NCBI GenBank assembly: GCA_039714415.1
Contig: JBDLJL010000002.1
Span: 14,269 to 78,268, forward strand
Origin: Bacteroidota bacterium
GTDB taxonomy: Bacteria > Bacteroidota > Bacteroidia > Bacteroidales > NBLH01
Length of the DNA: 64,000 bases
Direction: 5' to 3'
The notes beneath the pieces were generated by a model that was given only the letters and a program-made list of their open reading frames with translations, was not told the origin of the DNA and searched no databases. The number at the start of each line of letters is the position of its first letter. Position 1 is the first letter of the stretch. Below, one piece after another: positions 7,488 to 25,080 of this stretch. Both the position numbers and the translations under genes were made by a program.

Positions 7488-7694
7488 AAATACCACAAAT
7501 AATTAATAACTGAATAGCTGCTTTTTTAAATACGGAATTAATGATTGGCGAAGATAAAACTTTTTTTACTATTCATAATCAAGTGATTGAAGTTCAAGAG
7601 TTTTTTTTTAATATATTTATTTCATGACAACTATTAAAATCTATTGATTAGGCATTATATATGTGTAATGCTGTTTAGTTTAAAGGTGTATATA

Positions 7695-9401
7695 ATGAAA
7701 AAATTAACAATTAATATATTCTTTATTTTAATATTGTCATCAGGGTTCATAAGTGCTCAATCAGTTATTAGCAGTCTTCATAATTTATCAGTAAGTGGTT
7801 CCGGGACAGTGAAAGCCACTGCAGAATCAGAAGTCTGTTTATTTTGTCATACACCACACAGTTCAAACCCATTAGGACCTTTATGGAACAGAAATGATCC
7901 TGGCTCTACTTATATTATATATGACAATACAATAAGTAGTACTTTTATCGCTATTCCCGGACAACCTGATGGAAGCGCTTTACTTTGCCTTTCATGCCAT
8001 GATGGAACAATTGCCATGGGTAATGTTCTTAGTAGAAGTACAGAAATTGCTATGGCTGGTGGATTTACAACAATTCAGGGACAAAAAAACCTTACAACTG
8101 ACTTATCAGATGACCATCCTGTATCATTTGTTTATAATTCTGCCTTAGCTGCTGCCGATGGTCAGTTAAAATTTCCGCCGGAACATCCCGTAATATTAGA
8201 TAATAATAGTAAGCTACAGTGTACATCTTGTCATGATCCACACAAAAATACATATAAACAGTTTCTGCGGGTATCCAACCAATTCTCAGCATTATGTTTT
8301 AATTGTCATGATAGAAATTATTGGTCAGCATCCAGCCATCAAAGTTCAGTTGCAACATGGAGTGGTGCAGGTATAAACCCGTGGGCACATATTGAAACCC
8401 CTTATCCTAATGTAGCTGAAAATGCATGTCAAAATTGTCATAGCCCACATACTGCTTCTGGCAAAGCTCGTTTGTTGAAATCTGGTTTTGAAGAAAACAA
8501 TTGTTTGGATTGCCATAATGGTAATGTGGCTGCTACCAATATAGAAACTGAATTTAATAAAGCATATCGTCATAATGTATTTGCTTACAACCAGCTTCAT
8601 GATCCACAGGAAAATGCTGATCCTGATGTGATGCATGTTGAATGTGTGGACTGTCATAACCCTCATGCTGTTAATAATTCCACGGCAAATGCGCCAAATG
8701 CAAATGGGTTTTTAGCAGGAGTACGTGGAATTAATCAAGCTGGAATTCCGGTTAATGTGATCCAGTATGAATATGAATTATGTTATCGTTGCCATGCAGA
8801 TAATGCAGTAGTTGCCAGTCCAACTAACAGACAAATTGATTTAAACGACAATAATGTACGTCTTGAATTTGATGTAGCTAACCCATCATATCACCCCATT
8901 GGTGGCGCTGGTCAGAATACTAATGTCCCAAGTTTAATATCTCCATTAAACGAATCCAGTATTATTTATTGCACAAGCTGTCATGCAAGTGATGGAACAA
9001 GCTCACCTGCAGGGCCACATGGTTCAATTTATCCCAGTATCTTGAAATATAGATATGAAACAACAGATTATACCATTGAATCATCTTCAAACTATGAACT
9101 TTGTTACTCCTGCCATAGTCGCGCTTCTATTTTGAATGATGAGTCGTTTATACATTCCGTGCACCTTTTAGATCCTAATAATAGAAATAATCAGACAACT
9201 TGTAATACTTGTCATGACCCGCATGGAATAGACAATAGTCAGGGTAATAGCACTAATAATTCTAATTTAATAAATTTTGACCTTACTATAGTTTTACCAA
9301 ATGGCACAGGAACATTGGAATTTGTTGATACCGGTACTTTTAGTGGTTATTGTGTTTTGCGTTGCCATAATAGGGGGCATAGTGCTGGAATGAGTTATTA
9401 A
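7695..9401 (+). CDS. Secreted multiheme c-type cytochrome with 11 CXXCH plus 1 C-terminal CX3CH (start taken at MKKLTINIFF)
   Basis: Motifs in order: CLFCH, CLSCH, CTSCH, CFNCH, CQNCH, CLDCH, CVDCH, CYRCH, CTSCH, CYSCH, CNTCH, then CVLRCH. The N-terminal CH..H...PLWNR / LCLSCHDGT paired-CXXCH style is present. Confidence 0.88.
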   Translation: MKKLTINIFFILILSSGFISAQSVISSLHNLSVSGSGTVKATAESEVCLFCHTPHSSNPLGPLWNRNDPGSTYIIYDNTISSTFIAIPGQPDGSALLCLSCHDGTIAMGNVLSRSTEIAMAGGFTTIQGQKNLTTDLSDDHPVSFVYNSALAAADGQLKFPPEHPVILDNNSKLQCTSCHDPHKNTYKQFLRVSNQFSALCFNCHDRNYWSASSHQSSVATWSGAGINPWAHIETPYPNVAENACQNCHSPHTASGKARLLKSGFEENNCLDCHNGNVAATNIETEFNKAYRHNVFAYNQLHDPQENADPDVMHVECVDCHNPHAVNNSTANAPNANGFLAGVRGINQAGIPVNVIQYEYELCYRCHADNAVVASPTNRQIDLNDNNVRLEFDVANPSYHPIGGAGQNTNVPSLISPLNESSIIYCTSCHASDGTSSPAGPHGSIYPSILKYRYETTDYTIESSSNYELCYSCHSRASILNDESFIHSVHLLDPNNRNNQTTCNTCHDPHGIDNSQGNSTNNSNLINFDLTIVLPNGTGTLEFVDTGTFSGYCVLRCHNRGHSAGMSY

Positions 9402-9607: not shown

Positions 9608-11080
9608 ATGAAAAAATTCTTTTCTTTTAGATTCAAAATGACCATTGTACTGCTGGTTGTCATTGTATCAATTTCATTTGTTTCCTTTTTTCTTTATAAT
9701 CGTTATCTCACTAAAAAAATATATAGTAATGCCGAAGAAAATATAGTTAGTATCCTGCATTTAGTTAAGGATCAGTACTATCTGTCAAAGCATGATACAT
9801 CAAGCACATTTAATATACTAAAAAAAATTGAAGAGCATAATTGGGTTCTAAAAACATGTTTAGCAAATTCTAAAGGAAATATTTTGTATACCTCTAAAGC
9901 AAAATATCCCTTGTGTGAAATACCAGACACAAAAAAGTTATTATCCCTGACAAAAGAAGTTACTTTGGAATCACATATATATAATAATGAACCATATACC
10001 CGGATATATATGAAAATGGAAAATTCACCGAGCTGTTATGAATGTCATAGTTCGGAGATAAAAACAATTGGATATTTGGTATATGATATTTCTATGACTG
10101 GGGCAGAAAAGAATAAAGTGTTTTTATTAAAATTTACTCTTTTTAATACCATTTTTTTGGTTTTAATCATTGGACTGGTTATTAGCTTGATGCATTATAA
10201 ATTTGTTCGAAAATCATTAATGCATTTTCAAATTAAGATAGAAAAGATAAATAGAGGTAATTTGGATGAACGCATTGTTATTCCGCATACAAAAGAACTG
10301 GGACAACTTGGAGAGCATTTTAACAAGATGTTAGATAAGTTTCAAAAAACCCGAAAAGAACTTTTATTTTGTCATAAAAAAGAATTACGAAACAATAAAA
10401 AGCTTGCAACAGTTGGTGAAATGGCTGCCAGGTTAGCACATGAAATTAGAAATCCAATAACCGGAATAGCTAATGCGATAGAAATTATTGCTGATGAGAT
10501 ACCTGATAAGCAGAACAGGCCTATTTTGGAAGAAATTCAACGACAAGCAAATAGGGTTAATGATGCGATTTCGAAACTTCTTATATATTCCCGTGCTTCG
10601 GAATTGGATACAAAGGATTGTAATATTAATGAGTTGGTTAAATCTTTGGCGTTCTTTTTAAAAAATCAGAATCACAATAAAAGAATTAAATTTTTAGCAG
10701 ATTTGGAGGATGATATTCCGAACTTTTATATTGATCAGGGAAAAATTGAAAATGCACTTTTAAACCTGGGTTTAAATGCTGTACAAGCAATAAAAAAACA
10801 GGGCATAGTTACCTTTAAAACAAATTATGATGCTGCTAAAAATATCATAATGGTTAATGTTCAAGATACCGGATCAGGAATTTCGAATGAAATATTACCA
10901 AAAATTTTCAGCCCCTTTTTTACGACACGAACTGAGGGAACAGGTTTAGGCCTGGCAATTGTTAAGGATATTGTTGAAAAGCATCAAGGTAAGATTTGGG
11001 TTGAAAAAAACATAAAAAAAGGCAGTGTATTTACAATTTTATTGCCCATTATTGAGAAAGAAGAACTAATAAATATCTGA
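9608..11080 (+). CDS. Sensor histidine kinase with a periplasmic CXXCH (putative c-heme) sensor domain, HAMP, HisKA and HATPase_c
   Basis: Two TM segments flank a domain of about 150 aa containing SPSCYECHSSEIKTIGYLVYDIS. The H-box is AHEIRNPITGI and the G-box is GTGLGLAIVKDIVEKHQG. Confidence 0.85.
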   Translation: MKKFFSFRFKMTIVLLVVIVSISFVSFFLYNRYLTKKIYSNAEENIVSILHLVKDQYYLSKHDTSSTFNILKKIEEHNWVLKTCLANSKGNILYTSKAKYPLCEIPDTKKLLSLTKEVTLESHIYNNEPYTRIYMKMENSPSCYECHSSEIKTIGYLVYDISMTGAEKNKVFLLKFTLFNTIFLVLIIGLVISLMHYKFVRKSLMHFQIKIEKINRGNLDERIVIPHTKELGQLGEHFNKMLDKFQKTRKELLFCHKKELRNNKKLATVGEMAARLAHEIRNPITGIANAIEIIADEIPDKQNRPILEEIQRQANRVNDAISKLLIYSRASELDTKDCNINELVKSLAFFLKNQNHNKRIKFLADLEDDIPNFYIDQGKIENALLNLGLNAVQAIKKQGIVTFKTNYDAAKNIIMVNVQDTGSGISNEILPKIFSPFFTTRTEGTGLGLAIVKDIVEKHQGKIWVEKNIKKGSVFTILLPIIEKEELINI

Positions 11081-11118: not shown

Positions 11119-12492
11119 ATGAAGTTATTGAAAATATTGGTAATTGATGACGAAAAATTAATTCGCTGGTCTTTTGAAAAACAACTAAGCTCAAAAGGAT
11201 ATAAGGTATATACAGCTGAAACGGGTGAGGAAGGAATGAAATTATTTGAATTACATTATCCGGATTTGGTATTTGTAGACAGCCGTTTGCCGGGAATGCA
11301 GGGGTTAGAAGTAATATCCAGAATTAAATCTATAGATGATGATGTTATCCTAATTTGTATGACTGCATTTGGATCAATTGAAATGGCTGTTGAGGCAATG
11401 AAATTAGGGGCATTTGAATATTTAAAAAAACCGTTTTCTTTTGATGAAATTGATATAATAATTAACAACGTAAATAAGAAGATTAATATAGATAAGGAAA
11501 TTCAGTTGCTTAGAAGACAACAAACTGATAAGTTGACCTTTGACGATATTGTTTGTGAGTCAGAAAGCATCAAAAATATTATTGACCTTTTGAAAAAAAT
11601 ATCAAAAACAGATGCTACGACTATTTTACTTTTAGGTGAAAGTGGAACAGGGAAAGATATATTTGCCAGGGCTATTCATAATGAGAGTAATCGAAAAGAT
11701 AAATCTTTTGTTGATATTAATTGTTCATCATTACCGGAAACTTTATTGGAAAGTGAACTGTTTGGTTATGAGAAAGGTGCGTTTACTGATGCAAAAAAAC
11801 TTAAAAAGGGACTTTTCGAAATTGCAGAAAACGGCACTGTTTTTTTAGATGAAATTGGTGAAGTAAATCTTGCTACACAAGTTAAACTATTAAGTGTGCT
11901 TGAAAACAGATATGTTCGTCGCTTAGGAGGGACTCAGAACATTCCTGTAAATGTACGTATCATTGCAGCAACAAATAAAAATTTAGAAGAGGCTATTGCT
12001 GAAAAGACTTTTAGGGTTGATTTGTATTATAGGTTAAAGGTGTTTCAAATTACTTTACCCCCTTTAAATAAACGCAAAGAAGATATTGTTGCCCTAACTA
12101 ATTATTTTTTGGATATTTTTAATGCTCAATTTCGTAAAAAGATTAAGAGTATCGCCCCTAAAACAAAACAAATATTAATGCATTATAACTGGCCGGGAAA
12201 TGTAAGAGAATTAAAAAACGTCATGGAACGTGCAATTATATTGGAATCAAATGATAAATTAACTGCTAAAAACCTACCTGTTGAAATAAGAAACATCCAA
12301 CCTACCATTGAAAAAGTTAAAAATATCTATCATTTTGAAATTCCGGATGAAGGTATTTCATTAACAGAGTTGGAGAAACAGGTTATTATCCAGGCTTTAA
12401 AAAAAGCAGAGAATAACCAAACTAAAGCTTCAAAATTACTTGGAATTTCAAGGGATACCCTAAGGTATAAACAAAAAAAATACAAGATATAA
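11119..12492 (+). CDS. Sigma54-dependent response regulator (NtrC family: REC, AAA+, Fis-type HTH)
   Basis: The REC domain carries DLVFVDSRLPGMQG. Walker A is GESGTGKD, the sigma54-contact loop is GAFTDA (a variant of GAFTGA), and the C-terminal HTH is KASKLLGISRDTLRYKQKKY. Confidence 0.9.
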   Translation: MKLLKILVIDDEKLIRWSFEKQLSSKGYKVYTAETGEEGMKLFELHYPDLVFVDSRLPGMQGLEVISRIKSIDDDVILICMTAFGSIEMAVEAMKLGAFEYLKKPFSFDEIDIIINNVNKKINIDKEIQLLRRQQTDKLTFDDIVCESESIKNIIDLLKKISKTDATTILLLGESGTGKDIFARAIHNESNRKDKSFVDINCSSLPETLLESELFGYEKGAFTDAKKLKKGLFEIAENGTVFLDEIGEVNLATQVKLLSVLENRYVRRLGGTQNIPVNVRIIAATNKNLEEAIAEKTFRVDLYYRLKVFQITLPPLNKRKEDIVALTNYFLDIFNAQFRKKIKSIAPKTKQILMHYNWPGNVRELKNVMERAIILESNDKLTAKNLPVEIRNIQPTIEKVKNIYHFEIPDEGISLTELEKQVIIQALKKAENNQTKASKLLGISRDTLRYKQKKYKI

Positions 12493-12500
12493 ATGATCGC

Positions 12501-12752: not shown

Positions 12753-12768
12753 TGGTATATTGTTTGGA
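12753..12768 (+). promoter_or_regulatory. Weak -24/-12 (sigma54-like) box TGGTAT-ATTGT-TTGGA upstream of the tetraheme cytochrome gene
   Basis: GG and TTG have the canonical spacing, but the -12 element reads GG instead of GC. The box lies 45 nt before ATG 12813. Confidence 0.3.
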
Positions 12769-12812
12769 TTAATTAATATGCCTTCTATTTATTAATTAAA
12801 ACTATAACTAAT

Positions 12813-13439
12813 ATGAAAAAAATTCATTTAATTCTCTCTCTGTTTTTTTTATTTGCTTTTGCAAATTTCAGTTTTGGGCAAATTATTGGCTCAGGACATG
12901 ATTTTTCAGGTAATGCCTGGGCAAATAATAGGATTTGTATTGTTTGTCATACCCCTCATAATGGTACAGCTATGGCAAATGCGCCTTTGTGGAACAGGGA
13001 ATTGTCTGCAACAGCAACTTATACCATGTATAGTTCACTAACTTTTGATGGTGCTGCCTCGGCTGTTGACCCTATTGCTACTTCATCTTCAAACTCAAGG
13101 TTATGCCTCAGTTGCCACGATGGTACTGTAGCACTAGAAAACTTTGGAGGGGTAACAACCGGAACAACATTTATTACCGGTAGTGCAAACATAGGGACCG
13201 ACTTGAGTAATGATCATCCTATTTCATTTACCTATGATGATGCATTGTCAACTACAGATCCCGGATTGTGGCAACCAAGTACAACAGCTGCCTTAGGGGG
13301 GACAATTCAATCTGAAATGTTGTTTGGAGATCAGTTAGAATGTGCTTCTTGTCATAATGTGCATGATAATACCAATGGTTTCTTCTTAAGAATGGACAAT
13401 ACTGGTAGCGCCTTATGTTTAACTTGTCATAACAAATGA
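12813..13439 (+). CDS. Secreted tetraheme c-type cytochrome, paralogous to the N-terminal module of the 12-heme protein
   Basis: Motifs are CIVCH, CLSCH, CASCH and CLTCH. It shares GSGHDF..CIVCHTPH...APLWNR and LCLSCHDGT..DLSNDHPISF with 7695-9401. Confidence 0.88.
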   Translation: MKKIHLILSLFFLFAFANFSFGQIIGSGHDFSGNAWANNRICIVCHTPHNGTAMANAPLWNRELSATATYTMYSSLTFDGAASAVDPIATSSSNSRLCLSCHDGTVALENFGGVTTGTTFITGSANIGTDLSNDHPISFTYDDALSTTDPGLWQPSTTAALGGTIQSEMLFGDQLECASCHNVHDNTNGFFLRMDNTGSALCLTCHNK

Positions 13440-13464
13440 TAATGCTGAGGATTTAATTTTCTGG

Positions 13465-13491
13465 AAAGGCGGTTTTGAATCGCCTTTTTTT
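13465..13491 (+). terminator. Intrinsic terminator or attenuator after the tetraheme gene
   Basis: The stem is AAAGGCG / CGCCTTT with a 9-nt loop, followed by a T run. Confidence 0.55.
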
Positions 13492-13510
13492 CTTTTAAAA
13501 TTTATTTAAT

Positions 13511-14584
13511 ATGAACAATAAAATAAAAACATCAATTTTACTCATCTTTTTTTTTATTTTTCTGACTTCTTGCATAAAAGATGCAAGTTCCAGCTTAACA
13601 CAGGAAGATTACATTTTTTTCCCTTCACCACCTGATACTGCAAGAATTCAGTTTCTGACCAGTATAAATAGTTCACTTGATATTGAGGGGGATCAATCAG
13701 GTATAAATAAACTTGTTTTTGGGGAAGCCAAACCTAATTCAATTGTTAAACCATATGGTGTAGTAATGCATAATGGTAAAATATATGTATGCGATACAGG
13801 CATAAAAGGAATTGTAATTATTGATTTGGCTTTGAATACCTTTGAGTATTTTATTCCCGAAGGTAAAGGTAGGTTAATGCTGCCACTGAGTTGTTTTGTG
13901 GACAATGACGGTAAATTGTTTGTAGCAGATGGTAACCGTAAACAAATAGTTGTTTTTGATAAAACAGGCAAATATATTCATGCGTTTGGTGAACCTGAAA
14001 ATTTTAAGCCGACAGATGTATTTGTAACAAAGGATAAAATTTGGGTAGCCAATGTAAAAAACCACCATATAAATGTTTATAAAAATGATTCAACTTTCCA
14101 GTCGTTATATTATTTCCCTGAAATTGAACATGGATCAGAAGCCTTTCTAAATCAACCTACAAACATAAAAGTGGTAAATGACAAAGTTTATGTTACAGAT
14201 TTTGGAAGCTTCAAAGTCAAAATGTATCACTCGGATGGAAGTTTTATCGGGTCAATTGGTAGTTATGGAAAAGGTCTTGGGCAATTTGTTAGGCCAAAAG
14301 GAATTGCACTTGATAGAGAATCAAACCTTTACGTTGTTGACGCTGCTTTTGAAAATATTCAGATTTTTAACAAAAATAAACAACTTTTAATGTTTTTTGG
14401 TGGTGGTTATAGTGGTGCAGGAAGCATGTCATTACCGGCAAAAGTTGATATAAATTATGAAAACATAAAGTATTTTGAGCCATATGTAGATCCTCTGTAC
14501 CAAATTAAATATTTAATACTTGTAACAAATCTTTATGGAGGCAACAAGCTAAATATTTATGCCCGTGTTGAGCCTAAAGGATAA
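13511..14584 (+). CDS. NHL-repeat lipoprotein
   Basis: The lipobox is LTSC. NHL units include GKGLGQFVRPKGIALDRESNLYVVDAAFENIQIFN and LFVADGNRKQIVVFDKTGK. Confidence 0.75.
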   Translation: MNNKIKTSILLIFFFIFLTSCIKDASSSLTQEDYIFFPSPPDTARIQFLTSINSSLDIEGDQSGINKLVFGEAKPNSIVKPYGVVMHNGKIYVCDTGIKGIVIIDLALNTFEYFIPEGKGRLMLPLSCFVDNDGKLFVADGNRKQIVVFDKTGKYIHAFGEPENFKPTDVFVTKDKIWVANVKNHHINVYKNDSTFQSLYYFPEIEHGSEAFLNQPTNIKVVNDKVYVTDFGSFKVKMYHSDGSFIGSIGSYGKGLGQFVRPKGIALDRESNLYVVDAAFENIQIFNKNKQLLMFFGGGYSGAGSMSLPAKVDINYENIKYFEPYVDPLYQIKYLILVTNLYGGNKLNIYARVEPKG

Positions 14585-14597
14585 ACCAATACCTTGA

Positions 14598-15440
14598 ATG
14601 CAAAAGAACAGTGGAAAATATTTATTCTTTCTTTTTGTTTTAATAAGCTCTTATTTTATAGCTTGTTCACCACAAAAAAGTTATAAGGTATTATCGTTTT
14701 TATTTGATGGTGTTCCGGAACCTTCGCCTGATAAGTTGGTTGAATTAAATGATACAGTTTATCAGACTGATAGTGTTGTAATTGCTTCAAATAGGATTTC
14801 GCAACCATTAATGTTTTACCATTCCCCTTATAAGAAAAAAGAATGTACTATTTGTCATGATCGAAATTCCATGGATAAAACGGTTGAACCCCAACCTAAA
14901 CTTTGCTATAAGTGTCATGACAACTATAATGATAAATTCGAGTTTATTCATGGCCCGGTAGGTGGTGGGTATTGTACTTCGTGTCATAATGCTCATAAAT
15001 CCAAATCTGATCATTTACTTTTAAGGTCTTCTCAACAGTTGTGCATACACTGTCATGATTCTATTTTGGTTTTTAAAAACAGGTATCATTTAAACAATGA
15101 TATATCAAATTGTATAGAATGCCATAACCCTCATGGTGGTGAAAACAGGTACATGCCTGAAAAAGGTTCCTGTTATAAATGTCATGAAAAATACAATGAA
15201 AAATTTAGCTATCTGCATGGCCCTGTGGCCGGTGAATATTGCACAACCTGTCATAGCCCGCATATGACTAAAACAAAAAAACTATTAATAATGCAAGGTT
15301 CTTCATTGTGTTTAAATTGCCATAACAAAGAATTGATTTTTGAAAGTGATCATCATAAAAATGTAGATAAGACTTGTATTGATTGTCATGATCCACATGG
15401 AGGTGAAGACAGGTTATTTATAAAAAATAAAACTCAATGA
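14598..15440 (+). CDS. Nonaheme c-type cytochrome lipoprotein (1 + 4 + 4 CXXCH, two c7/c3-like tetraheme units)
   Basis: The lipobox is IAC. Motifs are CTICH, CYKCH, CTSCH, CIHCH, CIECH, CYKCH, CTTCH, CLNCH and CIDCH. An internal duplicate is visible: CYKCH..YN.KF...HGPV.G.YCT.CH. Confidence 0.88.
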   Translation: MQKNSGKYLFFLFVLISSYFIACSPQKSYKVLSFLFDGVPEPSPDKLVELNDTVYQTDSVVIASNRISQPLMFYHSPYKKKECTICHDRNSMDKTVEPQPKLCYKCHDNYNDKFEFIHGPVGGGYCTSCHNAHKSKSDHLLLRSSQQLCIHCHDSILVFKNRYHLNNDISNCIECHNPHGGENRYMPEKGSCYKCHEKYNEKFSYLHGPVAGEYCTTCHSPHMTKTKKLLIMQGSSLCLNCHNKELIFESDHHKNVDKTCIDCHDPHGGEDRLFIKNKTQ

Positions 15441-15444
15441 ATAA

Positions 15445-17406
15445 TTGATGGGTAGGAAGCTTATATATATCATTTTATTTTTATTATTCTATGCAGATGG
15501 TATAGCTCAAAAGCCTATTGTTTCATTGGGGACATGGAAGCTAACTAAACTATATGGCGACTTTAATTTACACAGTTTTTATAGAGGAAATGAACGATCT
15601 TTTAATCAAAATTATGAATTTCATCAAAGTGGTTATTTTTCAGGGGGGCTGTGTTTAAAAACGAGAAGTTATTTTTGGGATCCTAATTTTATAACACTTG
15701 ACGTAAATGCTGAGTATAGTCCTGAAACAGGCAATGAATTTTACCTTAATATTCCTGATCGTTCAGAAGTAAGAACTCTAAAAAGACTGGATTTAAGAAC
15801 CTCAATATTCAAAAAGAATAGTCTTTCACTAAATGCTTTTGCTAATTTAAACCAAAGTATTAATAACCGGGAACTTTTAACCAGCCTAAAATCAGAAAAT
15901 AAAAGATGGGGCGGGATGTTATCATACAGGAACAAGGCACTTCCATTTACCCTTACATATAAAGAAAATTTGTGGGATCAGGAAGAAATTGCTTCAAGAA
16001 GAGTGTTCAAAATGAATCAGAAAAACTTTATGGCCAGAACTTCAAAATCCTTTTCTGATTATGATTCACACGAATTAAATTATGCTCATAATGTATATTC
16101 CCGGCAGGATGGTGATATGCAACCTATTGAAAACAATATTGATCAGATATTTTTGAAAAACAGGGTCTATTTTGATACTCAAAAGAAATATGTTTTCAGA
16201 TCGTTGATTACGGATTTTATTCAAAAAGGGAATAATGAATATAAAAGATTCCAGGTAAATGAACAATTGTTCTTAAAATTACCCCAAAAACTCTCATTAA
16301 CTGCTAATTATCAATATTACAATTTACAACAAACATCACAAAGTTTAAATCAAAACAGGCTTAAGGCCACCCTTGGCCATCAATTATTTTTAAGTTTAAA
16401 TACAAATGTGTATTATGAATATTTCAAACTTAGGCATTCCTTTTATGATGAGGCAAATACCCGGGCTGGAATAGACCTTACTTACTCAAAAAAAATACCT
16501 AAAGGTCATTTTACCCTTGCCTATAAATACTACAGGCATTACCAGGTCATGGATGCCCAAAATACTTTCATTAATGAAATAAATGAAGAACATGTTTTAT
16601 CAGATGGTCAAATTGTATTATTAAACAGACCTTATATTGATCCTGCAACAATTATTGTAAAAGATATTACCGGGACAATTATATTTCAACGTGATTTCGA
16701 CTATATTTTAATTGAAAGGAATAATTTTATTGAAATTCAACGTTTACCTGGTGGTCAAATTCCTAATAATGAAATTGTATACATTGATTATACCGCTGTT
16801 CAACCAGGCTCATATCAGTATGATGCCAATAATAATGCCTTATCAGCAAACATTATCTTATTTAACCGATTAATCGAACTGTATTTCCGGGCTTCAAAGC
16901 AAGAGTATTCAAGCTTAATAAACGTGGATCATATTACCTTAAATCGCTATACACAAACTTTAGTAGGTGGTAAAGTTGATGTTGGTTTTGCAATTGCCGG
17001 AATTGAATATGATAATTACAATAGCAATATTATTCCCTACCGTATGGTAAGATATTATATCAATCTTCAAAAAACTTTCTATAAAAGGCTTTTATGTTCT
17101 TTAAATGGGAATATTAGGGATTATGAAAAAACAACAGATAAAATACCACAACAATTTTCTGATATTTCGGGGAAAATCATTTATCGGTTTAAATTAAGAT
17201 CAAAAATCTCTTTGGAAGGAGCTTACCGAAAACAACAAGGTGATGGAATTGATTTGGATTTATTTACAGGAAGGAGTGAGTTTGAAACAAAATACCGGCA
17301 AATGATTTTTAAAGTTGGTATGAATATGTATCGTCGGAATAATATCGGTAATAAAACTGTTTTTAACAGTGTTTATGGTAAAATTATAAGAAAATTTAAA
17401 TTATAA
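15445..17406 (+). CDS. Putative outer-membrane beta-barrel (porin-like) protein of the cytochrome conduit
   Basis: It has a signal peptide (LFYADGIAQ), is 653 aa and is rich in Y/N/R/K. Alternating hydrophobic strands run to the C-terminus (IFKVGMNMYRR ... TVFNSVYGKIIRKFKL). It lies 4-8 nt from the flanking cytochrome genes. There is no recognisable enzymatic motif. Confidence 0.5.
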   Translation: MMGRKLIYIILFLLFYADGIAQKPIVSLGTWKLTKLYGDFNLHSFYRGNERSFNQNYEFHQSGYFSGGLCLKTRSYFWDPNFITLDVNAEYSPETGNEFYLNIPDRSEVRTLKRLDLRTSIFKKNSLSLNAFANLNQSINNRELLTSLKSENKRWGGMLSYRNKALPFTLTYKENLWDQEEIASRRVFKMNQKNFMARTSKSFSDYDSHELNYAHNVYSRQDGDMQPIENNIDQIFLKNRVYFDTQKKYVFRSLITDFIQKGNNEYKRFQVNEQLFLKLPQKLSLTANYQYYNLQQTSQSLNQNRLKATLGHQLFLSLNTNVYYEYFKLRHSFYDEANTRAGIDLTYSKKIPKGHFTLAYKYYRHYQVMDAQNTFINEINEEHVLSDGQIVLLNRPYIDPATIIVKDITGTIIFQRDFDYILIERNNFIEIQRLPGGQIPNNEIVYIDYTAVQPGSYQYDANNNALSANIILFNRLIELYFRASKQEYSSLINVDHITLNRYTQTLVGGKVDVGFAIAGIEYDNYNSNIIPYRMVRYYINLQKTFYKRLLCSLNGNIRDYEKTTDKIPQQFSDISGKIIYRFKLRSKISLEGAYRKQQGDGIDLDLFTGRSEFETKYRQMIFKVGMNMYRRNNIGNKTVFNSVYGKIIRKFKL

Positions 17407-17414
17407 CCATTATT

Positions 17415-19610
17415 ATGGAAGGATTTCTGTTTTCACTATTAATATGGGCTTCAAGTTTGAATCCTAATTTGGCAAATCAGGCCAATGTAAATGATATTTC
17501 CTTTTCTGAAACAAGCTATAATTATTTGGCTCAAAATACTTTAGTTGAAAATAATTGTATAGAATGTCATGAGGATGTTTTGGAATTAAAGAGAAAACAC
17601 AAAGCTGCTACAGAGGGCTGTGATAAATGCCATACGCCTAATGGAAAAGAACACCCGCTTGAGGGTGTTAAAGGCTTTTCCTTAAGCCAAAAGATTCCTG
17701 CACTGTGCTTATCTTGCCACGATAGCTTAAATTTCAAGAAAAACTTACATCAACCATCAAAAGATGGGAAATGTATTGATTGTCATTCACCACATAGCTC
17801 AAAATACAAGAACTTGTTAATTGAAAAAAAGAGTGCGAATTTGTGTAAAAAATGCCATGACCTGGAGATAAAGGAAAAGGATGTGGTACACAATCCTGTT
17901 AAAGGTGGTAGGTGTCATAAATGCCATGATCCTCATCAATCTGATTTTGATTCGTTTTTGAAAAACGACATGCCCGCTTTATGTTACCGGTGCCACGATG
18001 GCGTTGCCGAAGAAATGAAATTAAAAAGGCTGCATGCCCCTGCCAAAGAAGATTGCTTCAAATGCCATGATCCGCACAATTCTAAAGAAAGTTATTTGCT
18101 TAATGATACCATCCCTACATTGTGCTATTCATGCCATACAGATATAAAAACGAAAAAAAATATACACCAACCTGCCGGTGATGGAAAATGTAAGGACTGT
18201 CATGCCACCCATGGTTCCAAAAATAAGAAGTTGTTAAAACAAAAGAAGTCAGTAAATCTGTGTAAGGAATGCCACCAACTGGAAATAAAGGAAAAGGATG
18301 TGGTACATAATCCCGTTAAAGGTGGTAGGTGCCATAAATGCCATAATCCGCACCAATCCGATTTTGATTCGTTTTTGAAAAACGATATGCCATCTTTATG
18401 TTACAGGTGCCATGATGGTGTTGCCGAAGAAATGAAATTAAAAAGGGTGCATACAGCAGCCAAAGAAAATTGTTTAGGCTGCCACAATCCGCATAATGCT
18501 AAAGAGAGTTATTTACTTCCTGACACTATTCCAAACTTATGTTATTCTTGTCACCAGGATAAGAAAACGAAAAAAAACATTCATAAATCTTCTGTTGACG
18601 GAAAATGTAGTAGTTGTCATGTTACCCATGGTTCAAAAAACAAAAATTTGCTAAGAGAGAAGAAATCAGTAAATTTATGTAAGGAATGTCATCAACTGGA
18701 TATTCCTAAAGGAAATGTGGTACATAATCCTGTTAAAGGTGGCAGGTGCCATAAATGTCATGATTCGCATCAATCTGATTTTGATTCGTTTTTGAAAAAC
18801 GATATGCCCGCTTTATGTTTCCGTTGCCATGATGGTGTCGCAGATGCTTTAAAAACTGATAACGTTCATAAACCAGCAAAGGAAGACTGCTTTAAATGTC
18901 ACGATGCGCATAATAATAAAGAAAGTTATTTACTTCCTGATTCTGTACCAAGTTTATGCTATAGTTGTCATAAAGATTTTCAAAAAAGTATAGAAGGTAC
19001 AGCATTAGTGCATCAGGCAGTAAAAAATCAGAAATCATGTTCAAATTGTCATTCACCACATGGTTCTGCTGAGAATAATTTTTTGAAGGCAAAAGAAAAA
19101 GAGCTATGTTTAAATTGTCATAATAAAACATACAAAACAGAATCCGGAATCATTGTAAATGTTAAAAAGCAAATAGAAAACGGTAAATCTGTACATGGAC
19201 CCGTTAATAACGGATGTGTAGTTTGTCACGACCCGCATTCTTCAAAAAACCCTAACTTAATGGTCGCAAACTTTCCGGTTGGTTCATATGCTGTAGCAAA
19301 CAAAGAAAATTTTGCATTATGTTTTAATTGCCATGATATTGAGATTCTTAAAAATGAACGAAGTAAAACAGTTACCAATTTTAGGGATGGTGATTTGAAC
19401 CTTCATTTTTTACATACCAATGGCAACCGGGGAAGAAACTGTACGACATGTCATAATATGCACGCCTCTAAAAATGAGCATTTAATAGAGGATAAAGTTA
19501 TGTATGGTAATTGGAAAATGCCCATGAAATTTATAAAATTAGAAAATGGAGGATCTTGTTTTCCGGGATGTCATTCAGAAGAAAAATATGACAGAACAAG
19601 AATATGGTAA
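17415..19610 (+). CDS. Giant multiheme c-type cytochrome, 26 CXXCH plus 1 C-terminal CX3CH
   Basis: The 26 CXXCH motifs were counted in the 731-aa translation, plus CFPGCH at aa 715-720. The sequence contains almost nothing but heme-binding units. Confidence 0.9.
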   Translation: MEGFLFSLLIWASSLNPNLANQANVNDISFSETSYNYLAQNTLVENNCIECHEDVLELKRKHKAATEGCDKCHTPNGKEHPLEGVKGFSLSQKIPALCLSCHDSLNFKKNLHQPSKDGKCIDCHSPHSSKYKNLLIEKKSANLCKKCHDLEIKEKDVVHNPVKGGRCHKCHDPHQSDFDSFLKNDMPALCYRCHDGVAEEMKLKRLHAPAKEDCFKCHDPHNSKESYLLNDTIPTLCYSCHTDIKTKKNIHQPAGDGKCKDCHATHGSKNKKLLKQKKSVNLCKECHQLEIKEKDVVHNPVKGGRCHKCHNPHQSDFDSFLKNDMPSLCYRCHDGVAEEMKLKRVHTAAKENCLGCHNPHNAKESYLLPDTIPNLCYSCHQDKKTKKNIHKSSVDGKCSSCHVTHGSKNKNLLREKKSVNLCKECHQLDIPKGNVVHNPVKGGRCHKCHDSHQSDFDSFLKNDMPALCFRCHDGVADALKTDNVHKPAKEDCFKCHDAHNNKESYLLPDSVPSLCYSCHKDFQKSIEGTALVHQAVKNQKSCSNCHSPHGSAENNFLKAKEKELCLNCHNKTYKTESGIIVNVKKQIENGKSVHGPVNNGCVVCHDPHSSKNPNLMVANFPVGSYAVANKENFALCFNCHDIEILKNERSKTVTNFRDGDLNLHFLHTNGNRGRNCTTCHNMHASKNEHLIEDKVMYGNWKMPMKFIKLENGGSCFPGCHSEEKYDRTRIW
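17697..18947 (+). repeat. Three tandem in-frame 417-bp (139-aa, hexaheme) repeat units inside the 27-heme gene
   Basis: CTGGA(G/A)ATAAAGGAAAAGGATGTGGTACA recurs at 17862 and 18279, and its diverged counterpart CTGGATATTCCTAAAGGAAATGTGGTACA lies at 18696 (period 417). Long stretches are near-identical at nucleotide level. Confidence 0.85.
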
Positions 19611-22600
19611 AATATTTAAATGGAATATATATGAAACGTGTTTATAATGTGTTGATTTCTATGCAGACAATGGCTGCATTGCTTATTTTGTATATAATTG
19701 CAATGGCGGTAGCCACCTTTATTGAAAATGATTATGGTGCCCCTGTTTCAAAACACTTTGTTTATAATGCCTGGTGGTTTGAACTTATCCAGTTTCTACT
19801 GGTTGTTAATATGGTTGGAAATGTTTTTAAATATAAGTTGTATAAAAAACAAAAGTTAAGTATCCTTTTATTTCACATTGCTTTTATTATTATTCTCATT
19901 GGTGCAGGTGTAACCCGTTATATAAGTTTTGAAGGGACAATGCATATTCGTGAAGGAGAATCAAGCAACAAGATTCTTTCAGGAACATTATTGCAAATGC
20001 ATCTGTCCTCCGGTGATTTGCAGGAAAATTATAATACAGAATTGTTTATAAGTCCCGCTGTAAATACAGAGTTTTATCATGAGTTTGAGATAAATGGGAA
20101 AAAAGTTGAAGTAGAATTGAAAAATATAATCCCGAACCCAAAAGAAACTGTGGTTGAAGTTATAGATGGAAAAGCAATAATTGATATGGTATTTGCTTCA
20201 AAACAGAATATGGACAACCATTTTCTAAAAGAAAAAGCAATATTAAGTCATGGTGGGTTAAGCTTTACATTAAATGATGAAAGCAATGGTCAATCAGTAA
20301 AATTTTATACAGAGAATAAAAAGCTTTACCTGTTATCATCTTATAATTTAAGCGTGTTGGCAATGACAGGTAGTGAACTTGATACTGTTCTAATAGCAGG
20401 CGAAAAACACGAAATTCAGCTAAAGCAGTTGTATTCAATACAAAATCAGAAATTTGTTGTTACTAATTTTTATGAAAAAGCAAGAATTTCTTATGTGCCT
20501 GGCGATATGAGAAATGGTATGCAATTTTTTGCTTTGGAATTTGATATAAAAAGCGGTGTTTCAACAAAAAAAGCTGAAATAATTAGTGCTTATGGTGCGG
20601 TAGGCTACCCTGCATCAATACAAATTAATGAAATAAATGTTGACCTTGCTTACGGTGCACAGGAAATGATTTTACCTTTTGAATTGAAATTAAGAGATTT
20701 TCAACTTGAAAGATATCCGGGTTCTGAAAGTCCGTCTTCTTATGCAAGTGAAGTAACTTTATTAGATGAAAAGAATAGTATTGATATGGATTATCGCATT
20801 TTTATGAATAATGTGCTTGATTATAAAGGCTATCGTTTTTTTCAATCATCTTATGACCGTGATGAGAAGGGAACCATTTTATCAGTAAGTAAAGATAAAA
20901 CAGGAACAATGATTACCTACCTGGGATACTTTCTTCTATCACTTGGTATGCTTTGGTCATTATTAAATAAAAACAGTTATTTTATTGAACTTCTAAAAAG
21001 AACCGGGGACATTAGGGATAAGAGAAAAGGGATTGCGACCGTTATTTTGATTTTATTATTATTTGGTACTCAAAATTCTTTTGCCCAGAACACCCGACAG
21101 CATATAGATGCTGCCCATGCTAAAGAATTTGGAAAACTATTTGTTCAGGATAATGGTGGCCGTATCAAACCTTTTAACACGCTGACTAATGAACTTTTAA
21201 GAAAAATTTCAAGAAAAGAAGAGCTGCTGGGGTTAAACTCAAATCAAGTTTATTTGGGTATGATATTTAACCCGGTGTTCTGGAAAGATGTTAAAATGAT
21301 AAAAATCAAAAACCAGGAGTTAAAAGATTTGTTGGGTGTAGTGGGCTCATATGTGTCATTTAATGATCTGGTTAACCTGGAAAAAAATGAATACAAGTTA
21401 AAATCATATGTTGAGATGGCTTTTAATAAGGAGCTATCCCAAAGGAGTAAGTTTGACAAAGATGTAATTACAGTAGATGAACGTTTAAATATTTCTTATC
21501 AGGTTCTTTCTGGTGCATACCTCAAAGTTTTTCCTATACCCGATGAAATAAATCACAAATGGTTAAACCCTTCTGGAAATAAACATATTAAAGATAGTGT
21601 TGACAGGCAGTTTGTGGCCGGTGTGTTTTCAGCATATTTTAATGCGGTTGTGGCATCTGAAAAATCTGGTGATTGGGCTAAGCCAAATGAAATTCTAAAA
21701 AGTATTAAAGATTTTCAGATGAAATATGGTTCAGAAATTATTCCATCAGAAACTAAACTTAAGTTAGAGGTTCATTACATTAATGCTGATATTTTTAATA
21801 GAATTTACATGTACTATGGAATCATTGGGTTCGTTTTTTTAATTGTTTTATTTGTGGGCATTTTAAAGCCAAAAATGAATATAAAAATATTCACAACCCT
21901 TGCCAGTATTTTGTTGGGGGTTCTCTTTTTGTTCCATACTTATGGTTTAGGTTTACGATGGTACATTTCTGATCATGCCCCCTGGAGCAATGGATATGAA
22001 TCTATGATTTATATTGCCTGGGCTACAATGCTTGCCGGCTTTTTGTTCATGAAACGTTCACCAATAACGCTGGCGGCTACCTCATTATTGGCATCTATCA
22101 CCTTGATGGTGGCCCATTTAAGTTGGATGAACCCTGAAATAACCAACTTAGTACCTGTATTAAAGTCGTACTGGTTAACTATTCATGTATCCGTTATAAC
22201 AGCAAGTTATGGATTTTTGGCCTTGGCTGCATTGCTTGGGTTTTTAAGCCTAATTCTAATTATTTTACAAACTAATAAAAATAAGGAACAAATAAACCTG
22301 ACCATTGAGGAAATAACAAATGTTAACCATATGGCAATTATTGTGGGATTGTATTTGTTAACTATTGGTGCATTTTTAGGTGGGGTGTGGGCTAATGAAT
22401 CCTGGGGCAGGTATTGGGGCTGGGACCCTAAAGAAACATGGGCTTTAATAACAATAATTGTTTATTCTTTCGTAACCCATACTCGCTTAATACCATTTTT
22501 GAACAATAGGTATACTTATAACCTACTCTCTTTATTAAGTTTTTCTTCAGTTTTAATGACCTATTTTGGTGTTAACTATTACTTGTCCGGATTGCATTCT

Positions 22601-22732
22601 TATGCCTCTGGCGATCCTGTTCCTGTTCCAGCTTATGTTTATTATATCTTAGCTATAATTTTTATAATTTCAATAGTAGCATTTTTTAAAAATTCAAAGA
22701 CTAAAGAAGAAAAGGTTTCCATATCAGTATAA
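19604..22732 (+). CDS. ccsBA: Fused System II cytochrome c synthetase CcsBA (ResB-like N-terminus plus CcsA C-terminus); alternative start at 19631
   Basis: The ResB-type N-terminus is SMQTMAALLILYIIAMAVATFIEN. The C-terminal WWD motif is WGRYWGWDPKETWAL, with multiple TM segments. ATG 19604 overlaps the stop of the 27-heme gene (ATGGTAA). Confidence 0.85.
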   Translation: MVKYLNGIYMKRVYNVLISMQTMAALLILYIIAMAVATFIENDYGAPVSKHFVYNAWWFELIQFLLVVNMVGNVFKYKLYKKQKLSILLFHIAFIIILIGAGVTRYISFEGTMHIREGESSNKILSGTLLQMHLSSGDLQENYNTELFISPAVNTEFYHEFEINGKKVEVELKNIIPNPKETVVEVIDGKAIIDMVFASKQNMDNHFLKEKAILSHGGLSFTLNDESNGQSVKFYTENKKLYLLSSYNLSVLAMTGSELDTVLIAGEKHEIQLKQLYSIQNQKFVVTNFYEKARISYVPGDMRNGMQFFALEFDIKSGVSTKKAEIISAYGAVGYPASIQINEINVDLAYGAQEMILPFELKLRDFQLERYPGSESPSSYASEVTLLDEKNSIDMDYRIFMNNVLDYKGYRFFQSSYDRDEKGTILSVSKDKTGTMITYLGYFLLSLGMLWSLLNKNSYFIELLKRTGDIRDKRKGIATVILILLLFGTQNSFAQNTRQHIDAAHAKEFGKLFVQDNGGRIKPFNTLTNELLRKISRKEELLGLNSNQVYLGMIFNPVFWKDVKMIKIKNQELKDLLGVVGSYVSFNDLVNLEKNEYKLKSYVEMAFNKELSQRSKFDKDVITVDERLNISYQVLSGAYLKVFPIPDEINHKWLNPSGNKHIKDSVDRQFVAGVFSAYFNAVVASEKSGDWAKPNEILKSIKDFQMKYGSEIIPSETKLKLEVHYINADIFNRIYMYYGIIGFVFLIVLFVGILKPKMNIKIFTTLASILLGVLFLFHTYGLGLRWYISDHAPWSNGYESMIYIAWATMLAGFLFMKRSPITLAATSLLASITLMVAHLSWMNPEITNLVPVLKSYWLTIHVSVITASYGFLALAALLGFLSLILIILQTNKNKEQINLTIEEITNVNHMAIIVGLYLLTIGAFLGGVWANESWGRYWGWDPKETWALITIIVYSFVTHTRLIPFLNNRYTYNLLSLLSFSSVLMTYFGVNYYLSGLHSYASGDPVPVPAYVYYILAIIFIISIVAFFKNSKTKEEKVSISV

Positions 22733-25075: not shown

Positions 25076-25080
25076 TAGCT

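Follow-up and report, generated by a model that had tools for sequence, protein, structure and literature searches.

A stretch of 64,000 nucleotides from an uncultured Bacteroidota bacterium (the window) carries a gene cluster that is real, widely conserved in Bacteroidota and their relatives, and uncharacterised. Its most likely product is a haem "wire" that crosses the outer membrane, an MtrAB-like porin-cytochrome conduit, and the region at about 6.4-26.4 kb of the window (Table 1) is probably the core of a conserved extracellular-electron-transfer island. It appears to be a variant of the porin-cytochrome kind with sequences of its own, and the literature has noticed the cluster only in passing.

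Table 1. Features of the cluster and its flanks, in window coordinates
Feature	Position	Strand	Remarks
NHL beta-propeller, paralogue 1	6417..7424	+	paired with 12-haem cytochrome; Pfam NHL, 6-bladed propeller
12-haem cytochrome	7644..9401	+	11 CxxCH and 1 CxxxCH; likely true start near 7695
Sensor histidine kinase	9608..11080	+	HAMP, HisKA, HATPase domains; one CxxCH in periplasmic loop
Sigma-54-dependent response regulator (NtrC type)	11119..12492	+	Response_reg, Sigma54_activat, HTH_8 domains
Putative sigma-54-like -24/-12 element TGGTATATTGTTTGGA	12753..12768	+	60 nt 5' of tetrahaem start
Tetrahaem cytochrome, SPI signal peptide	12813..13439	+	4 CxxCH; shuttle or NHL-bound
Terminator-like hairpin and T-run	13463..13497	+	3' of tetrahaem gene
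NHL 6-bladed propeller lipoprotein, paralogue 2	13511..14584	+	Pfam NHL and DUF5128
9-haem MtrA-type lipoprotein cytochrome	14598..15440	+	9 CxxCH; constant neighbour of barrel
Outer-membrane beta-barrel, about 28-30 strands	15445..17406	+	AF2 model; probable start ATG 15448
57-residue mini-domain inserted in barrel	16600..16770	+	between strands 18 and 19
27-haem MtrA-like wire, not lipidated	17415..19610	+	TIGR03508; fold match MtrA; most likely periplasmic
417-bp tandem repeat, three units	17838..18935	+	encodes 139-residue, 6-haem cassettes
Fused CcsBA (System II cytochrome c maturation)	19604..22732	+	ResB and Cytochrom_C_asm domains
Four-cluster ferredoxin with Tat signal and NrfD membrane subunit	24080..26427	+	Fer4_11, NrfD

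Gene order and regulation

The order tetrahaem cytochrome, NHL lipoprotein, lipoprotein cytochrome, barrel, wire (the 27-haem protein in the window) recurs in 153 species genomes, and carriers of the cluster fall into three phylum-level lineages, Bacteroidota, "Chlorobiota" and Calditrichota; all 80 genomes inspected are of uncultured origin (MAGs and one SAG). Chance is excluded, because the same five-gene order, barrel and NHL included, stands in about 80 independent loci, with spacings of 1-20 nt. The lipoprotein cytochrome adjoins the barrel in the window and in 79 of 82 fetched loci, the NHL gene lies directly 5' of that cytochrome in 67/70, and the tetrahaem gene 5' of the NHL gene in 58/62. 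The wire follows 3' of the barrel in 63/69 loci and is missing from 6/69; the lipoprotein cytochrome, unlike the wire, is not missing. An exhaustive search still finds the same context at rank 148. In locus L084 the order is permuted, the barrel preceding both cytochromes; an NrfA-type cytochrome c552 lies near that cluster. CcsBA (178.9 bits against TIGR03144, just under the 187.6 cut-off) is kept beside the cluster in many loci, and the ferredoxin and NrfD pair, a candidate quinol dehydrogenase that may feed the conduit, is also present in locus L001.

The genes, spacings, haem counts, lipoboxes and hairpin listed in an initial annotation of this DNA are all present, with small corrections. 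Intergenic distances from the tetrahaem gene through NHL, 9-haem, barrel and 27-haem genes to ccsBA are 71, 13, 4, 8 and -7 nt; the barrel probably starts at ATG 15448, since a public protein 100% identical to it has 652 aa, which makes the third distance 7 nt, not 4, and the 7-nt overlap into ccsBA hinges on the start codon chosen. Nor does the NHL gene simply lead the operon, as had been proposed: the conserved unit begins with the tetrahaem gene (product N-terminus ...GQ|IxGSxHDFS kept) and its upstream regulators. The NHL protein and the tetrahaem cytochrome make up a conserved pair, of which the window has a second version, NHL plus 12-haem. The two NHL proteins are 30% identical (E 4e-27), the NHL and 12-haem pair recurs in many loci, and the first four-haem module of the 12-haem cytochrome (family of >7330 matches at about 60% identity) shares homology with the tetrahaem protein. 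NHL proteins accompany tetrahaem-type cytochromes as paralogous partners; the Uet and DFE clusters, discussed below, show the same pairing. The copy at 13511 has a lipobox cysteine (LTSC), present in most orthologues, and the conserved motif VIYPxPPDTARIQF; no acidic export signal was found after its cysteine.

Between the tetrahaem and NHL genes, the hairpin (GGAAAGGCGG...CGCCTTTTT and a T-run, 13463-13489) outranks every other terminator-like site on the + strand at 7-24 kb. A hairpin stands in the same position, with differing stem sequences, in 41/64 loci versus 24/225 control windows, a conserved feature that is consistent with the differential expression suggested earlier. Sigma-54-like elements (TGGCAT-N5-TTTG) occur at -47 to -90 in 21/64 loci versus 3/80 control windows, and an NtrC-type regulator is kept 5' of the tetrahaem gene in many loci. 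The histidine kinase, with its CxxCH at residue 143, is a putative haem redox sensor; a one-haem kinase of ~490 aa is kept in the loci.

The barrel and its two cytochromes

The barrel candidate is modelled by AlphaFold (AF2, pLDDT 89.8) as a large outer-membrane beta-barrel of about 28-30 long antiparallel strands, and not as a soluble or other non-barrel fold. Its best PDB fold match is MtrB (6r2q_B; E 3.7e-8), a weak one (TM 0.45, 8% identity) that would indicate only a large outer-membrane barrel; other fold matches are likewise to large barrels (ushers, LptD, TonB-dependent receptors). The protein gave zero matches to Pfam, NCBIfam or PDB sequences, and its family comprises 2015 representative clusters. 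It has a signal peptide and ends in a C-terminal Phe, a beta-signal present in 35/44. The modelled barrel has a very large diameter and hardly any loops on either face; the inserted mini-domain ranks among its best-conserved stretches, and strand parity would put that domain on the periplasmic side.

The 27-haem protein (26 CxxCH and one CxxxCH, at residue 715) begins MEGFLFSLLIWASS, a signal without a positive n-region. It consists of a 9-haem core and three tandem 139-residue, 6-haem cassettes, 72-78% identical to each other (TRF reports the 417-bp repeat as 2.6 copies with 80% match), and the commonest haem counts among wire homologues are 9, 15, 21 and 27. It matches TIGR03508 (the DmsE/MtrA family) at 288.6 bits versus a cut-off of 192.2, a score inflated by repeats (7 partial stretches), and TIGR03507 at 50.6 bits, below the cut-off of 209. 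Its only significant PDB fold match is MtrA (6r2q_A; E 6e-8, TM 0.61 over all of MtrA, 28% identity), from the same complex as the MtrB chain matched by the barrel; the porin-cytochrome architecture first proposed for the cluster is supported. No lipobox is present, here or in the wire family across loci, and a profile search found no T9SS tail. The homologue P0396 matches it end to end at 43% identity and continues into a peptidoglycan-binding OmpA domain (996-1089), as do the similarly built P0442, P0398 and P0451; this evidence comes from homologues, not from the 27-haem protein itself. MtrA-like family and fold, absence of lipobox and T9SS tail, and OmpA-fused homologues together make the periplasm, not the cell surface, the most likely place of the 27-haem protein.

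The 9-haem protein has a lipobox cysteine (FIAC), kept in 74/80 and followed by an LSFFFDGVP motif; members of the family have 5 haems at 54 loci and 9 haems at another 19, and the protein shares 30-34% identity with parts of the 27-haem protein. No acidic surface-export signal was found in it. The Bacteroidota lipoprotein export motif has been defined in a few species, and its absence counts as negative evidence on that footing.

The initial annotation had cast the 9-haem protein as inner partner (MtrA) and the 27-haem protein as outer partner (MtrC). By family score and fold it is the 27-haem protein that is MtrA-like, and it would appear that the two were probably swapped. Two of the features then called non-canonical, a lipidated inner and a non-lipidated outer partner, are products of the assumed topology, because characterised conduits (MtrC; ExtF in ExtEFG) have a lipidated outer and a non-lipidated periplasmic cytochrome (PMC6148476). 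Co-occurrence suggests which cytochrome occupies the barrel. If both face the periplasm, the core is left with no obvious extracellular redox protein; a profile search found no MtrC/OmcA-type surface cytochrome in the cluster.

Weighing other readings

The whole conduit mechanism, with a periplasmic 27-haem wire, is the reading we hold to be probable; its topology and electron path are what we infer from sequence, fold and synteny. The original topology, with the 9-haem lipoprotein periplasmic and the 27-haem protein extending from the barrel as a surface haem nanowire of free length, is unlikely. In its favour, haem numbers range from 9 to 27 among close relatives, which an extracellular wire would accommodate more easily than one confined to a periplasm of set width; the lipoprotein cytochrome has no acidic signal; and most loci keep a small cytochrome, the barrel and a large cytochrome in that order. 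That order is, however, permuted in L084, and a surface wire sits poorly with the OmpA-fused homologues, with family score and fold that are MtrA-like and not MtrC-like (TIGR03507), with the lack of lipobox, T9SS C-terminal domain or any recognisable secretion route, and with the absence of the wire, but not of the lipoprotein cytochrome, from 6/69 loci.

The barrel might instead be a channel and not a static sheath, exporting cytochromes of the cluster (e.g. the tetrahaem or 12-haem proteins) to the surface or admitting soluble or colloidal acceptors that haem wires reduce in the periplasm. Its width and loop-less faces, the usher, LptD and TonB-dependent receptor matches, a core in which nothing is demonstrably extracellular, and Uet and DFE analogues of the tetrahaem and NHL proteins predicted or detected outside the cell (bioRxiv 10.1101/2022.05.06.490989; PMC8322314) would all fit. 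We nevertheless judge this improbable: MtrB is the best fold match, strict pairing with an MtrA-type cytochrome is a hallmark of sheath-type conduits, and neither a plug domain nor a TonB box or usher domain turned up with Pfam and NCBIfam profiles. Least credible is that the cytochromes store electrons or form a respiratory branch (e.g. for nitrogen or sulfur oxyanions) wholly within the periplasm, with barrel and NHL as unrelated neighbours. Weak matches to the NrfB and NrfH families, the NrfCD-like genes downstream and the c552 of L084 might point to this; against it stand the tightly spaced five-gene order kept across three lineages and a core without a catalytic haem protein.

Known systems and the proposed mechanism

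MtrAB/MtrCAB of Shewanella and MtoAB/PioAB likewise combine a large outer-membrane barrel with an MtrA-type haem wire, and the window barrel is in the size class of MtrB, above the 18-22-strand barrels of the Pcc class (PMC4245776). It lacks sequence membership in MtrB_PioB, however, and has about 28-30 strands and the inserted mini-domain where Mtr has 26 strands. MtrA has 10 haems, and Mtr has a MtrC/OmcA-type surface cytochrome and Ccm maturation; the cluster has a pair of MtrA-like cytochromes, one of them lipidated, whose haem counts are 5/9 and mostly 9, 15, 21 or 27, no such surface cytochrome, CcsBA, and NHL and tetrahaem partners that Mtr does not have. The Geobacter clusters ExtEFG, ExtABCD and ExtHIJKL, compared by composition, likewise contain a barrel and two cytochromes, one a small (penta)haem lipoprotein, the other a larger multihaem protein that is periplasmic and not lipidated. 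They can include a non-cytochrome lipoprotein (ExtH), and their gene order is not Mtr-like; their barrels have 18-21 strands, they lack NHL, tetrahaem gene and 6-haem cassette expansion, and their components are not homologous even to one another (PMC6148476).

Uet of 'Ca. Tenderia electrophaga', a gammaproteobacterial system linked to electron uptake, has a very similar parts list, the basis on which it was compared: tetrahaem UetA, the NHL propellers UetH and UetI, UetC as a predicted barrel of 28 strands, UetJ as a doubled-CXXCH cytochrome with 11-12 haems, and, alongside, the System II maturation genes CcsAB (bioRxiv 10.1101/2022.05.06.490989; PMC10734462). Unlike the window, it has no MtrA-like lipoprotein and long-wire pair flanking the barrel; its trihaem c7 proteins, cupredoxin and peptidyl-prolyl isomerase have no counterpart among the window ORFs scanned. 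Among multihaem gene neighbourhoods, clusters of cytochromes with NHL propellers rank with the most widespread (PMC11475568); in Desulfovibrio ferrophilus DFE_0448-0451 and DFE_0461-0465, compared by gene content, the propellers are 6-bladed as here (PMC9769857, PMC8322314), but no porin is apparent (PMC9769857), whereas the module in the window is built around its barrel. PCC3 of Gallionellaceae, likened by description, combines a porin with a second multihaem cytochrome and with a very long periplasmic one, which carries 21, 24 or 27 haems and has been proposed to reach across the periplasm; PCC3 lacks NHL and tetrahaem genes and belongs to a different phylum (PMC10734462).

In the mechanism we favour, the haem-containing sensor kinase and NtrC-type activator would switch on the sigma-54 promoter before the tetrahaem gene, the hairpin would leave the tetrahaem cytochrome more abundant than downstream products made by read-through, and CcsBA would mature all cytochromes of the cluster. 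Whether electrons flow outwards (metal or humic reduction) or inwards (electron uptake) is not readable from the sequence. The NHL lipoprotein may be a scaffold holding a tetrahaem-type cytochrome at the outer membrane. The 652-residue protein would form the 28-30-strand, almost loop-less barrel of MtrB size class, and its constant partner, the lipoprotein cytochrome (with 9 haems in the window but 5 in most relatives), would be anchored to the inner leaflet with its haem chain inserted into the barrel, as MtrA is in MtrB. Locus L085, which also has an OmpA-fused wire, two fusions of multihaem cytochrome and cytochrome b, and a NapC/NirT protein, may encode a complete inner-to-outer electron path in a relative. 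In the window, the 27-haem protein, as a second MtrA-type wire staying in the periplasm with its length set by the copy number of the 6-haem cassette, would bridge the barrel to a quinol dehydrogenase of the inner membrane, a role that would fall to the downstream NrfCD-like pair here and to CbcL-like cytochromes in relatives.

Gene layout and conservation of the module

The six ORFs running from the tetraheme cytochrome gene through ccsBA lie where the initial annotation had placed them, separated by 71, 13, 4, 8 and -7 nt. Heme motifs number 4 in the tetraheme protein, 9 in the lipoprotein cytochrome and 27 in the large cytochrome (26 CxxCH and a single CxxxCH, the latter at residue 715). 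Lipoboxes occur in the NHL protein (…LTSC) and the 9-heme protein (…FIAC); the 27-heme protein begins MEGFLFSLLIWASS and has none. The public protein 100% identical to the window barrel (P0001, "MAG: Bacteroidota bacterium") is 652 aa long, so the barrel probably starts at ATG 15448, which makes the preceding gap 7 nt, not 4. The 7-nt overlap into ccsBA is present, but hinges on the choice of start codon.

Features of the island and its surroundings, in window coordinates
Feature	Positions	Strand	Remark
NHL protein, paralogue 1	6417-7424		
12-heme cytochrome	7644-9401		
Sensor histidine kinase	9608-11080		
Sigma-54 response regulator	11119-12492		
Sigma-54-like element	12753-12768		TGGTATATTGTTTGGA; 60 nt upstream of tetraheme start
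Tetraheme cytochrome	12813-13439	+	
Hairpin followed by T-run	13463-13489	+	best terminator-like site on + strand, 7-24 kb
NHL lipoprotein	13511-14584	+	
9-heme lipoprotein cytochrome	14598-15440	+	
Barrel	15445-17406	+	
Barrel insert	16600-16770		residues ~385-441
27-heme cytochrome ("wire")	17415-19610	+	
Six-heme tandem units	17838-18935		417-bp repeat; 139 residues each, 72-78% identical
CcsBA	19604-22732	+	
Lipoprotein, 232 aa	22890-23588	-	
Tat-signal 4Fe-4S ferredoxin and NrfD membrane subunit	24080-26427		downstream of CcsBA
Monoheme cytochrome c	27486-27905		downstream of island
Futalosine-pathway menaquinone genes (VitK2_biosynth, PNP_UDP_1)	28510-30256		downstream of island

A scan of species-representative genomes found 153 encoding a relative, the best 80 of which are all uncultured (MAGs and one SAG) and belong to Bacteroidota, "Chlorobiota" and Calditrichota. 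ORF maps of the related loci show a five-gene core: a tetraheme cytochrome (~210 aa) upstream of the NHL gene (58/62 loci), the NHL protein itself (~360 aa; 67/70), a lipoprotein cytochrome adjoining the barrel (79 of 82 fetched loci, plus the window), the barrel, and a multiheme cytochrome downstream of it (63/69). The lipoprotein cytochrome is a 5-heme protein in 54 loci and a 9-heme protein in 19. The conserved unit starts upstream of the NHL gene, which had been read as the first gene of the operon. Many loci also have an NHL plus 12-heme pair, a one-heme sensor kinase, a sigma-54 activator and CcsBA, the same extras that the window carries at 6417-12492 and 19604-22732. Gene context is intact in the locus ranked 148 in the exhaustive barrel search (L083). 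Gene order is variable, as seen in locus L084, which runs tetraheme, NHL, barrel, cytochrome, cytochrome, cytochrome-OmpA. The feature is real and a conserved module, best classed with porin-cytochrome systems as a variant distinct in sequence.

The closest large-contig relative (L001, 63% barrel identity) has its lipoprotein cytochrome split into ORFs of 95 aa and 162 aa at 9154-9995, as also noted in L002 and L006, which could reflect a frameshift or an assembly error. In L001 an extra fusion of a 7-heme cytochrome to OmpA is encoded after the wire and before CcsBA.

The barrel and its two MtrA-like cytochromes

The window barrel has no Pfam or NCBIfam match at E<=0.01, is not a sequence member of MtrB_PioB (PF11854), and finds no match in PDB sequence searches, MtrB included, either as a single sequence or as a 44-member profile. 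Its homologues fall into more than 213 clusters at 90% identity, every one of them called "hypothetical" and close to 650 aa in length; an exhaustive profile search gives 2015 representative clusters at E<=1e-3 (545 at E<=1e-30), and the best 150 of the 2015 are all in-family. An AlphaFold2 model built from the alignment (mean pLDDT 89.8, pTM 0.71) is all-beta, with about 28-30 long antiparallel strands and very short turns on both faces. Foldseek matches in the PDB are outer-membrane barrels only, which answers the concern that the candidate might prove soluble or of non-barrel fold; the first is MtrB (6r2q_B, E 3.7e-8), with a TM-score of only 0.45 and 8% identity. The barrel protein carries an SPI signal peptide, and 35/44 family members end in the C-terminal Phe of the OMP beta-signal. 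By predicted strand number the barrel belongs to the MtrB size class, above the porins of 18-22 strands found in Pcc systems (PMC4245776). A 57-residue mini-domain (…IIFQRDFDYILIERNNFIEIQRLPGGQIPNN…), among the best-conserved stretches of the family, is inserted between strands 18 and 19 and, by strand parity in the model, should face the periplasm.

Longer barrel homologues (P0291, P0285, P0333, P0367) were checked for Rosetta-stone fusions, and their N-terminal extensions contain no heme motifs. That of P0291, a distant homologue of 811 aa, is a low-complexity, K/E-rich stretch of ~170 residues with repeated ETKKGSEAKKES units.

The 27-heme protein (731 residues) consists of an N-terminal three-heme part, three tandem six-heme units and a six-heme C-terminal core. 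Its homologues mostly have 9, 15, 21 or 27 hemes (9+6n), although 11, 14 and 19 are also seen, so wire length evolves by cassette number. Against the DmsE/MtrA family (TIGR03508) it scores 288.6 bits, over a cut-off of 192.2, by way of seven partial stretches, while the 9-heme protein scores 99.9, under the cut-off. Against OmcA/MtrC (TIGR03507), a family of lipoproteins with beta-barrel domains I and III, the 27-heme protein reaches just 50.6 bits for a cut-off of 209.3, its Pfam matches to that family are weak and confined to heme domains II/IV, and it lacks a lipobox. With an AlphaFold2 model of pLDDT 77, the single significant Foldseek match in the PDB is MtrA (6r2q_A; E 6e-8, TM 0.61 over all 265 MtrA residues, 28% identity). 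The 9-heme protein has the same paired-CXXCH build, at 30-34% identity to wire segments. DmsE/MtrA proteins are soluble and non-lipidated, with ten hemes in about 300-350 residues, a form from which both proteins depart, the wire in its 27 hemes and its length and the 9-heme protein in its heme number and lipobox. The two are MtrA-like building blocks, not MtrA orthologues.

Several wire homologues bear on cellular location. P0396 aligns end to end with the 27-heme protein at 43% identity, distinctive C-terminal core included, and then continues into an OmpA domain at 996-1089; P0442, P0398 and P0451 likewise continue into a C-terminal OmpA domain. The OmpA domain binds peptidoglycan and is periplasmic. 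From these fusions, the 27-heme family is most likely periplasmic. Wire orthologues conserve a short, uncharged hydrophobic N-terminus and never show a lipobox, and a family-profile search of the 27-heme protein found no T9SS C-terminal domain.

Partner proteins, inner-membrane components and regulation

The lipobox Cys of the lipoprotein cytochrome is kept in 74/80 loci, with an LSFFFDGVP motif about 10 residues on, and NHL orthologues are lipoproteins with a conserved VIYPxPPDTARIQF motif. An acidic pair soon after the lipid-bearing Cys is the known signal for surface export of lipoproteins in Bacteroidota. No such pair occurs at +2 to +6 in any of 74 lipoprotein cytochromes or 65 NHL proteins, so both families appear to lack the known export signal, which is negative evidence only.

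The first four-heme module of the 12-heme protein also exists on its own, as the tetraheme protein (36% identity, E 2e-35), and the two NHL proteins are themselves paralogues at 30% identity. The window therefore has two cytochrome-plus-NHL pairs that are paralogous to each other, which argues that NHL may be the partner of a tetraheme-type module rather than the "leader" of a conduit operon. A search with the 12-heme protein for named UetJ or DFE homologues gave none among the 120 matches listed, all of them near-identical FCB-group proteins. Across the homologue lists (best 120-150 matches), those that are named come mostly from FCB-group or related uncultured lineages.

CcsBA combines PF05140 and PF01578 in one 1042-residue protein, the ResB/CcsA domains of System II, and scores 178.9 bits against the CcsB equivalog TIGR03144, just under the cut-off of 187.6. 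The lipoprotein gene beside it has a weak C-terminal OB-fold match, and a minus-strand ORF of 232-242 aa occupies the equivalent place in many related loci. The Tat-signal ferredoxin and NrfD subunit are a plausible candidate quinol dehydrogenase. Assignment of the Fer4/NrfD genes to alternative complex III was rejected on the sizes of the subunits and the absence of ActA/ActB-type genes. The cluster of locus L085 ends in an OmpA-fused wire, two CbcL-like proteins that fuse a multiheme part to cytochrome b, and a NapC/NirT protein, a set that, read from its genes, would be a complete path from inner to outer membrane. At L085 11194-17975 and L084 9001-12309 the fusions to cytochrome b (Ni_hydr_CYTB) are 816 and 923 aa long, with a NapC/NirT protein, and the OmpA-fused wires of these clusters reach 1102 aa; the window has no OmpA-fused wire, cytochrome-b fusion or NapC/NirT protein.

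In 21/64 loci a scored scan found elements resembling TGGCAT-N5-TTTG between -47 and -90, vs 3/80 control windows; the strict sigma-54 pattern TGG-N9-TGC gave few sites. The window's element is in keeping with the NtrC-type activator beside it and with a kinase whose single CxxCH, at residue 143, lies in a predicted periplasmic loop. In many related loci the tetraheme gene likewise comes after a one-heme kinase of about 485-510 aa and then a sigma-54 activator, and the window kinase is probably a heme-c redox sensor governing the island. A terminator-like hairpin follows the tetraheme stop codon in 41/64 loci, vs 24/225 control windows; stem sequences differ between loci, so it is the structure that is kept, not the sequence. 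Its conservation lends support to the proposal of high tetraheme expression with read-through into the genes beyond, but falls short of proof. Taken from sequence features, the heme-sensor kinase, promoter-like element and hairpin suggest control of stoichiometry.

A candidate outer-membrane electron conduit

The cluster is quite probably an outer-membrane electron conduit. Menaquinol would give its electrons to the NrfCD-like module, which is CbcL-like in relatives, and this in turn to the long periplasmic wire of MtrA type; the lipid-anchored MtrA-type cytochrome, sitting inside the barrel, would then carry them out of the cell. NHL propellers would hold the tetraheme and 12-heme proteins as shuttles or terminal contacts. 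We regard this mechanism as a whole as likely, and its topology is on balance the one we favor. The initial annotation had instead made the 9-heme protein the inner, MtrA-like partner and the 27-heme protein the outer, MtrC-like one. The porin-cytochrome architecture it described is borne out; its placing of the two cytochromes, in view of an MtrA-like 27-heme protein with OmpA-fused homologues, is probably inverted, and as a topology it is unlikely. That the barrel serves as an export or uptake channel is improbable, and a purely periplasmic system is very improbable indeed.

Functionally closest to the proposed conduit are MtrAB, MtoAB and PioAB, from which the cluster differs in lying outside MtrB_PioB by sequence, in having no MtrC and in its heme numbers; MtrB is a 26-strand sheath for a decaheme cytochrome, and the window barrel is modeled with about 28-30 strands. 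Barrel strand number and the NF041028 (GSU2203) score, 231 bits for a cut-off of 325, set the cluster apart from Geobacter Pcc (OmaB-OmbB-OmcB), to which it probably does not belong. The OmbB-type Pcc reported for Ignavibacterium was rejected on barrel size (18-22 strands, PMC4245776, vs about 28-30 in 652 residues). Geobacter ExtEFG is alike in composition: its barrel comes with one small cytochrome that is a lipoprotein and a larger one that is periplasmic (PMC6148476). In Ca. Tenderia, the Uet cluster comprises a tetraheme protein, two NHL proteins, a barrel predicted to have 28 strands, an 11-12-heme cytochrome and CcsAB (bioRxiv 10.1101/2022.05.06.490989; PMC10734462), and, compared by parts list, the window shares all six of these component types (tetraheme, two NHL, ~28-strand barrel, 11-12-heme, CcsA/B) within 6417-22732. 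Pfam scans of most of the larger window ORFs (19-34961) found no trihaem c7 (UetDEG), cupredoxin (UetF) or PPIase (UetB) domains. D. ferrophilus has cytochrome-plus-NHL islands that resemble that of the window but lack a porin (PMC9769857), and PCC3 of Gallionellaceae, by its description, is a precedent for periplasmic wires of 21-27 hemes (PMC10734462). Most of the points first called non-canonical vanish once the topology is flipped or Uet, DFE and Ext are taken as precedents. Genuinely unusual here are the barrel of 28-30 strands with its conserved insert, two MtrA-like partners of which one is lipidated, the expansion by six-heme cassettes, and the paralogous pairing of NHL and tetraheme proteins.

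Papers that mention Bacteroidetes clusters of this general kind describe them only as uncharacterized (PMC8258643, PMC6344600, PMC13013709). Our literature search found no paper defining the barrel or conduit family, and no characterized trans-outer-membrane electron conduit for Bacteroidota, Ignavibacteria-like or Calditrichota lineages, which are abundant in sediments, aquifers and digesters and on anodes. The family, with 2015 representative protein clusters and members in at least 153 species genomes, is a concrete, testable conduit candidate with a defined parts list, and its barrel profile could serve as a marker in environmental surveys because Pfam and NCBIfam, as the searches suggest, apparently miss it. 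Cassette expansion in units of six hemes offers a natural experiment on how wire length is set. More speculatively, a lipid-anchored MtrA-like cytochrome may be locked into the unusually wide 28-30-strand barrel by the conserved periplasmic insert and connect at its end with a wire that crosses the peptidoglycan and whose reach is tuned in evolution by gain or loss of six-heme cassettes (9, 15, 21, 27), with NHL propellers docking exchangeable terminal tetraheme modules. If true, this scheme of locked cytochrome and cassette wire would mean that Bacteroidota and Calditrichota move electrons across the envelope in a distinct way of their own, shared phylum-wide.
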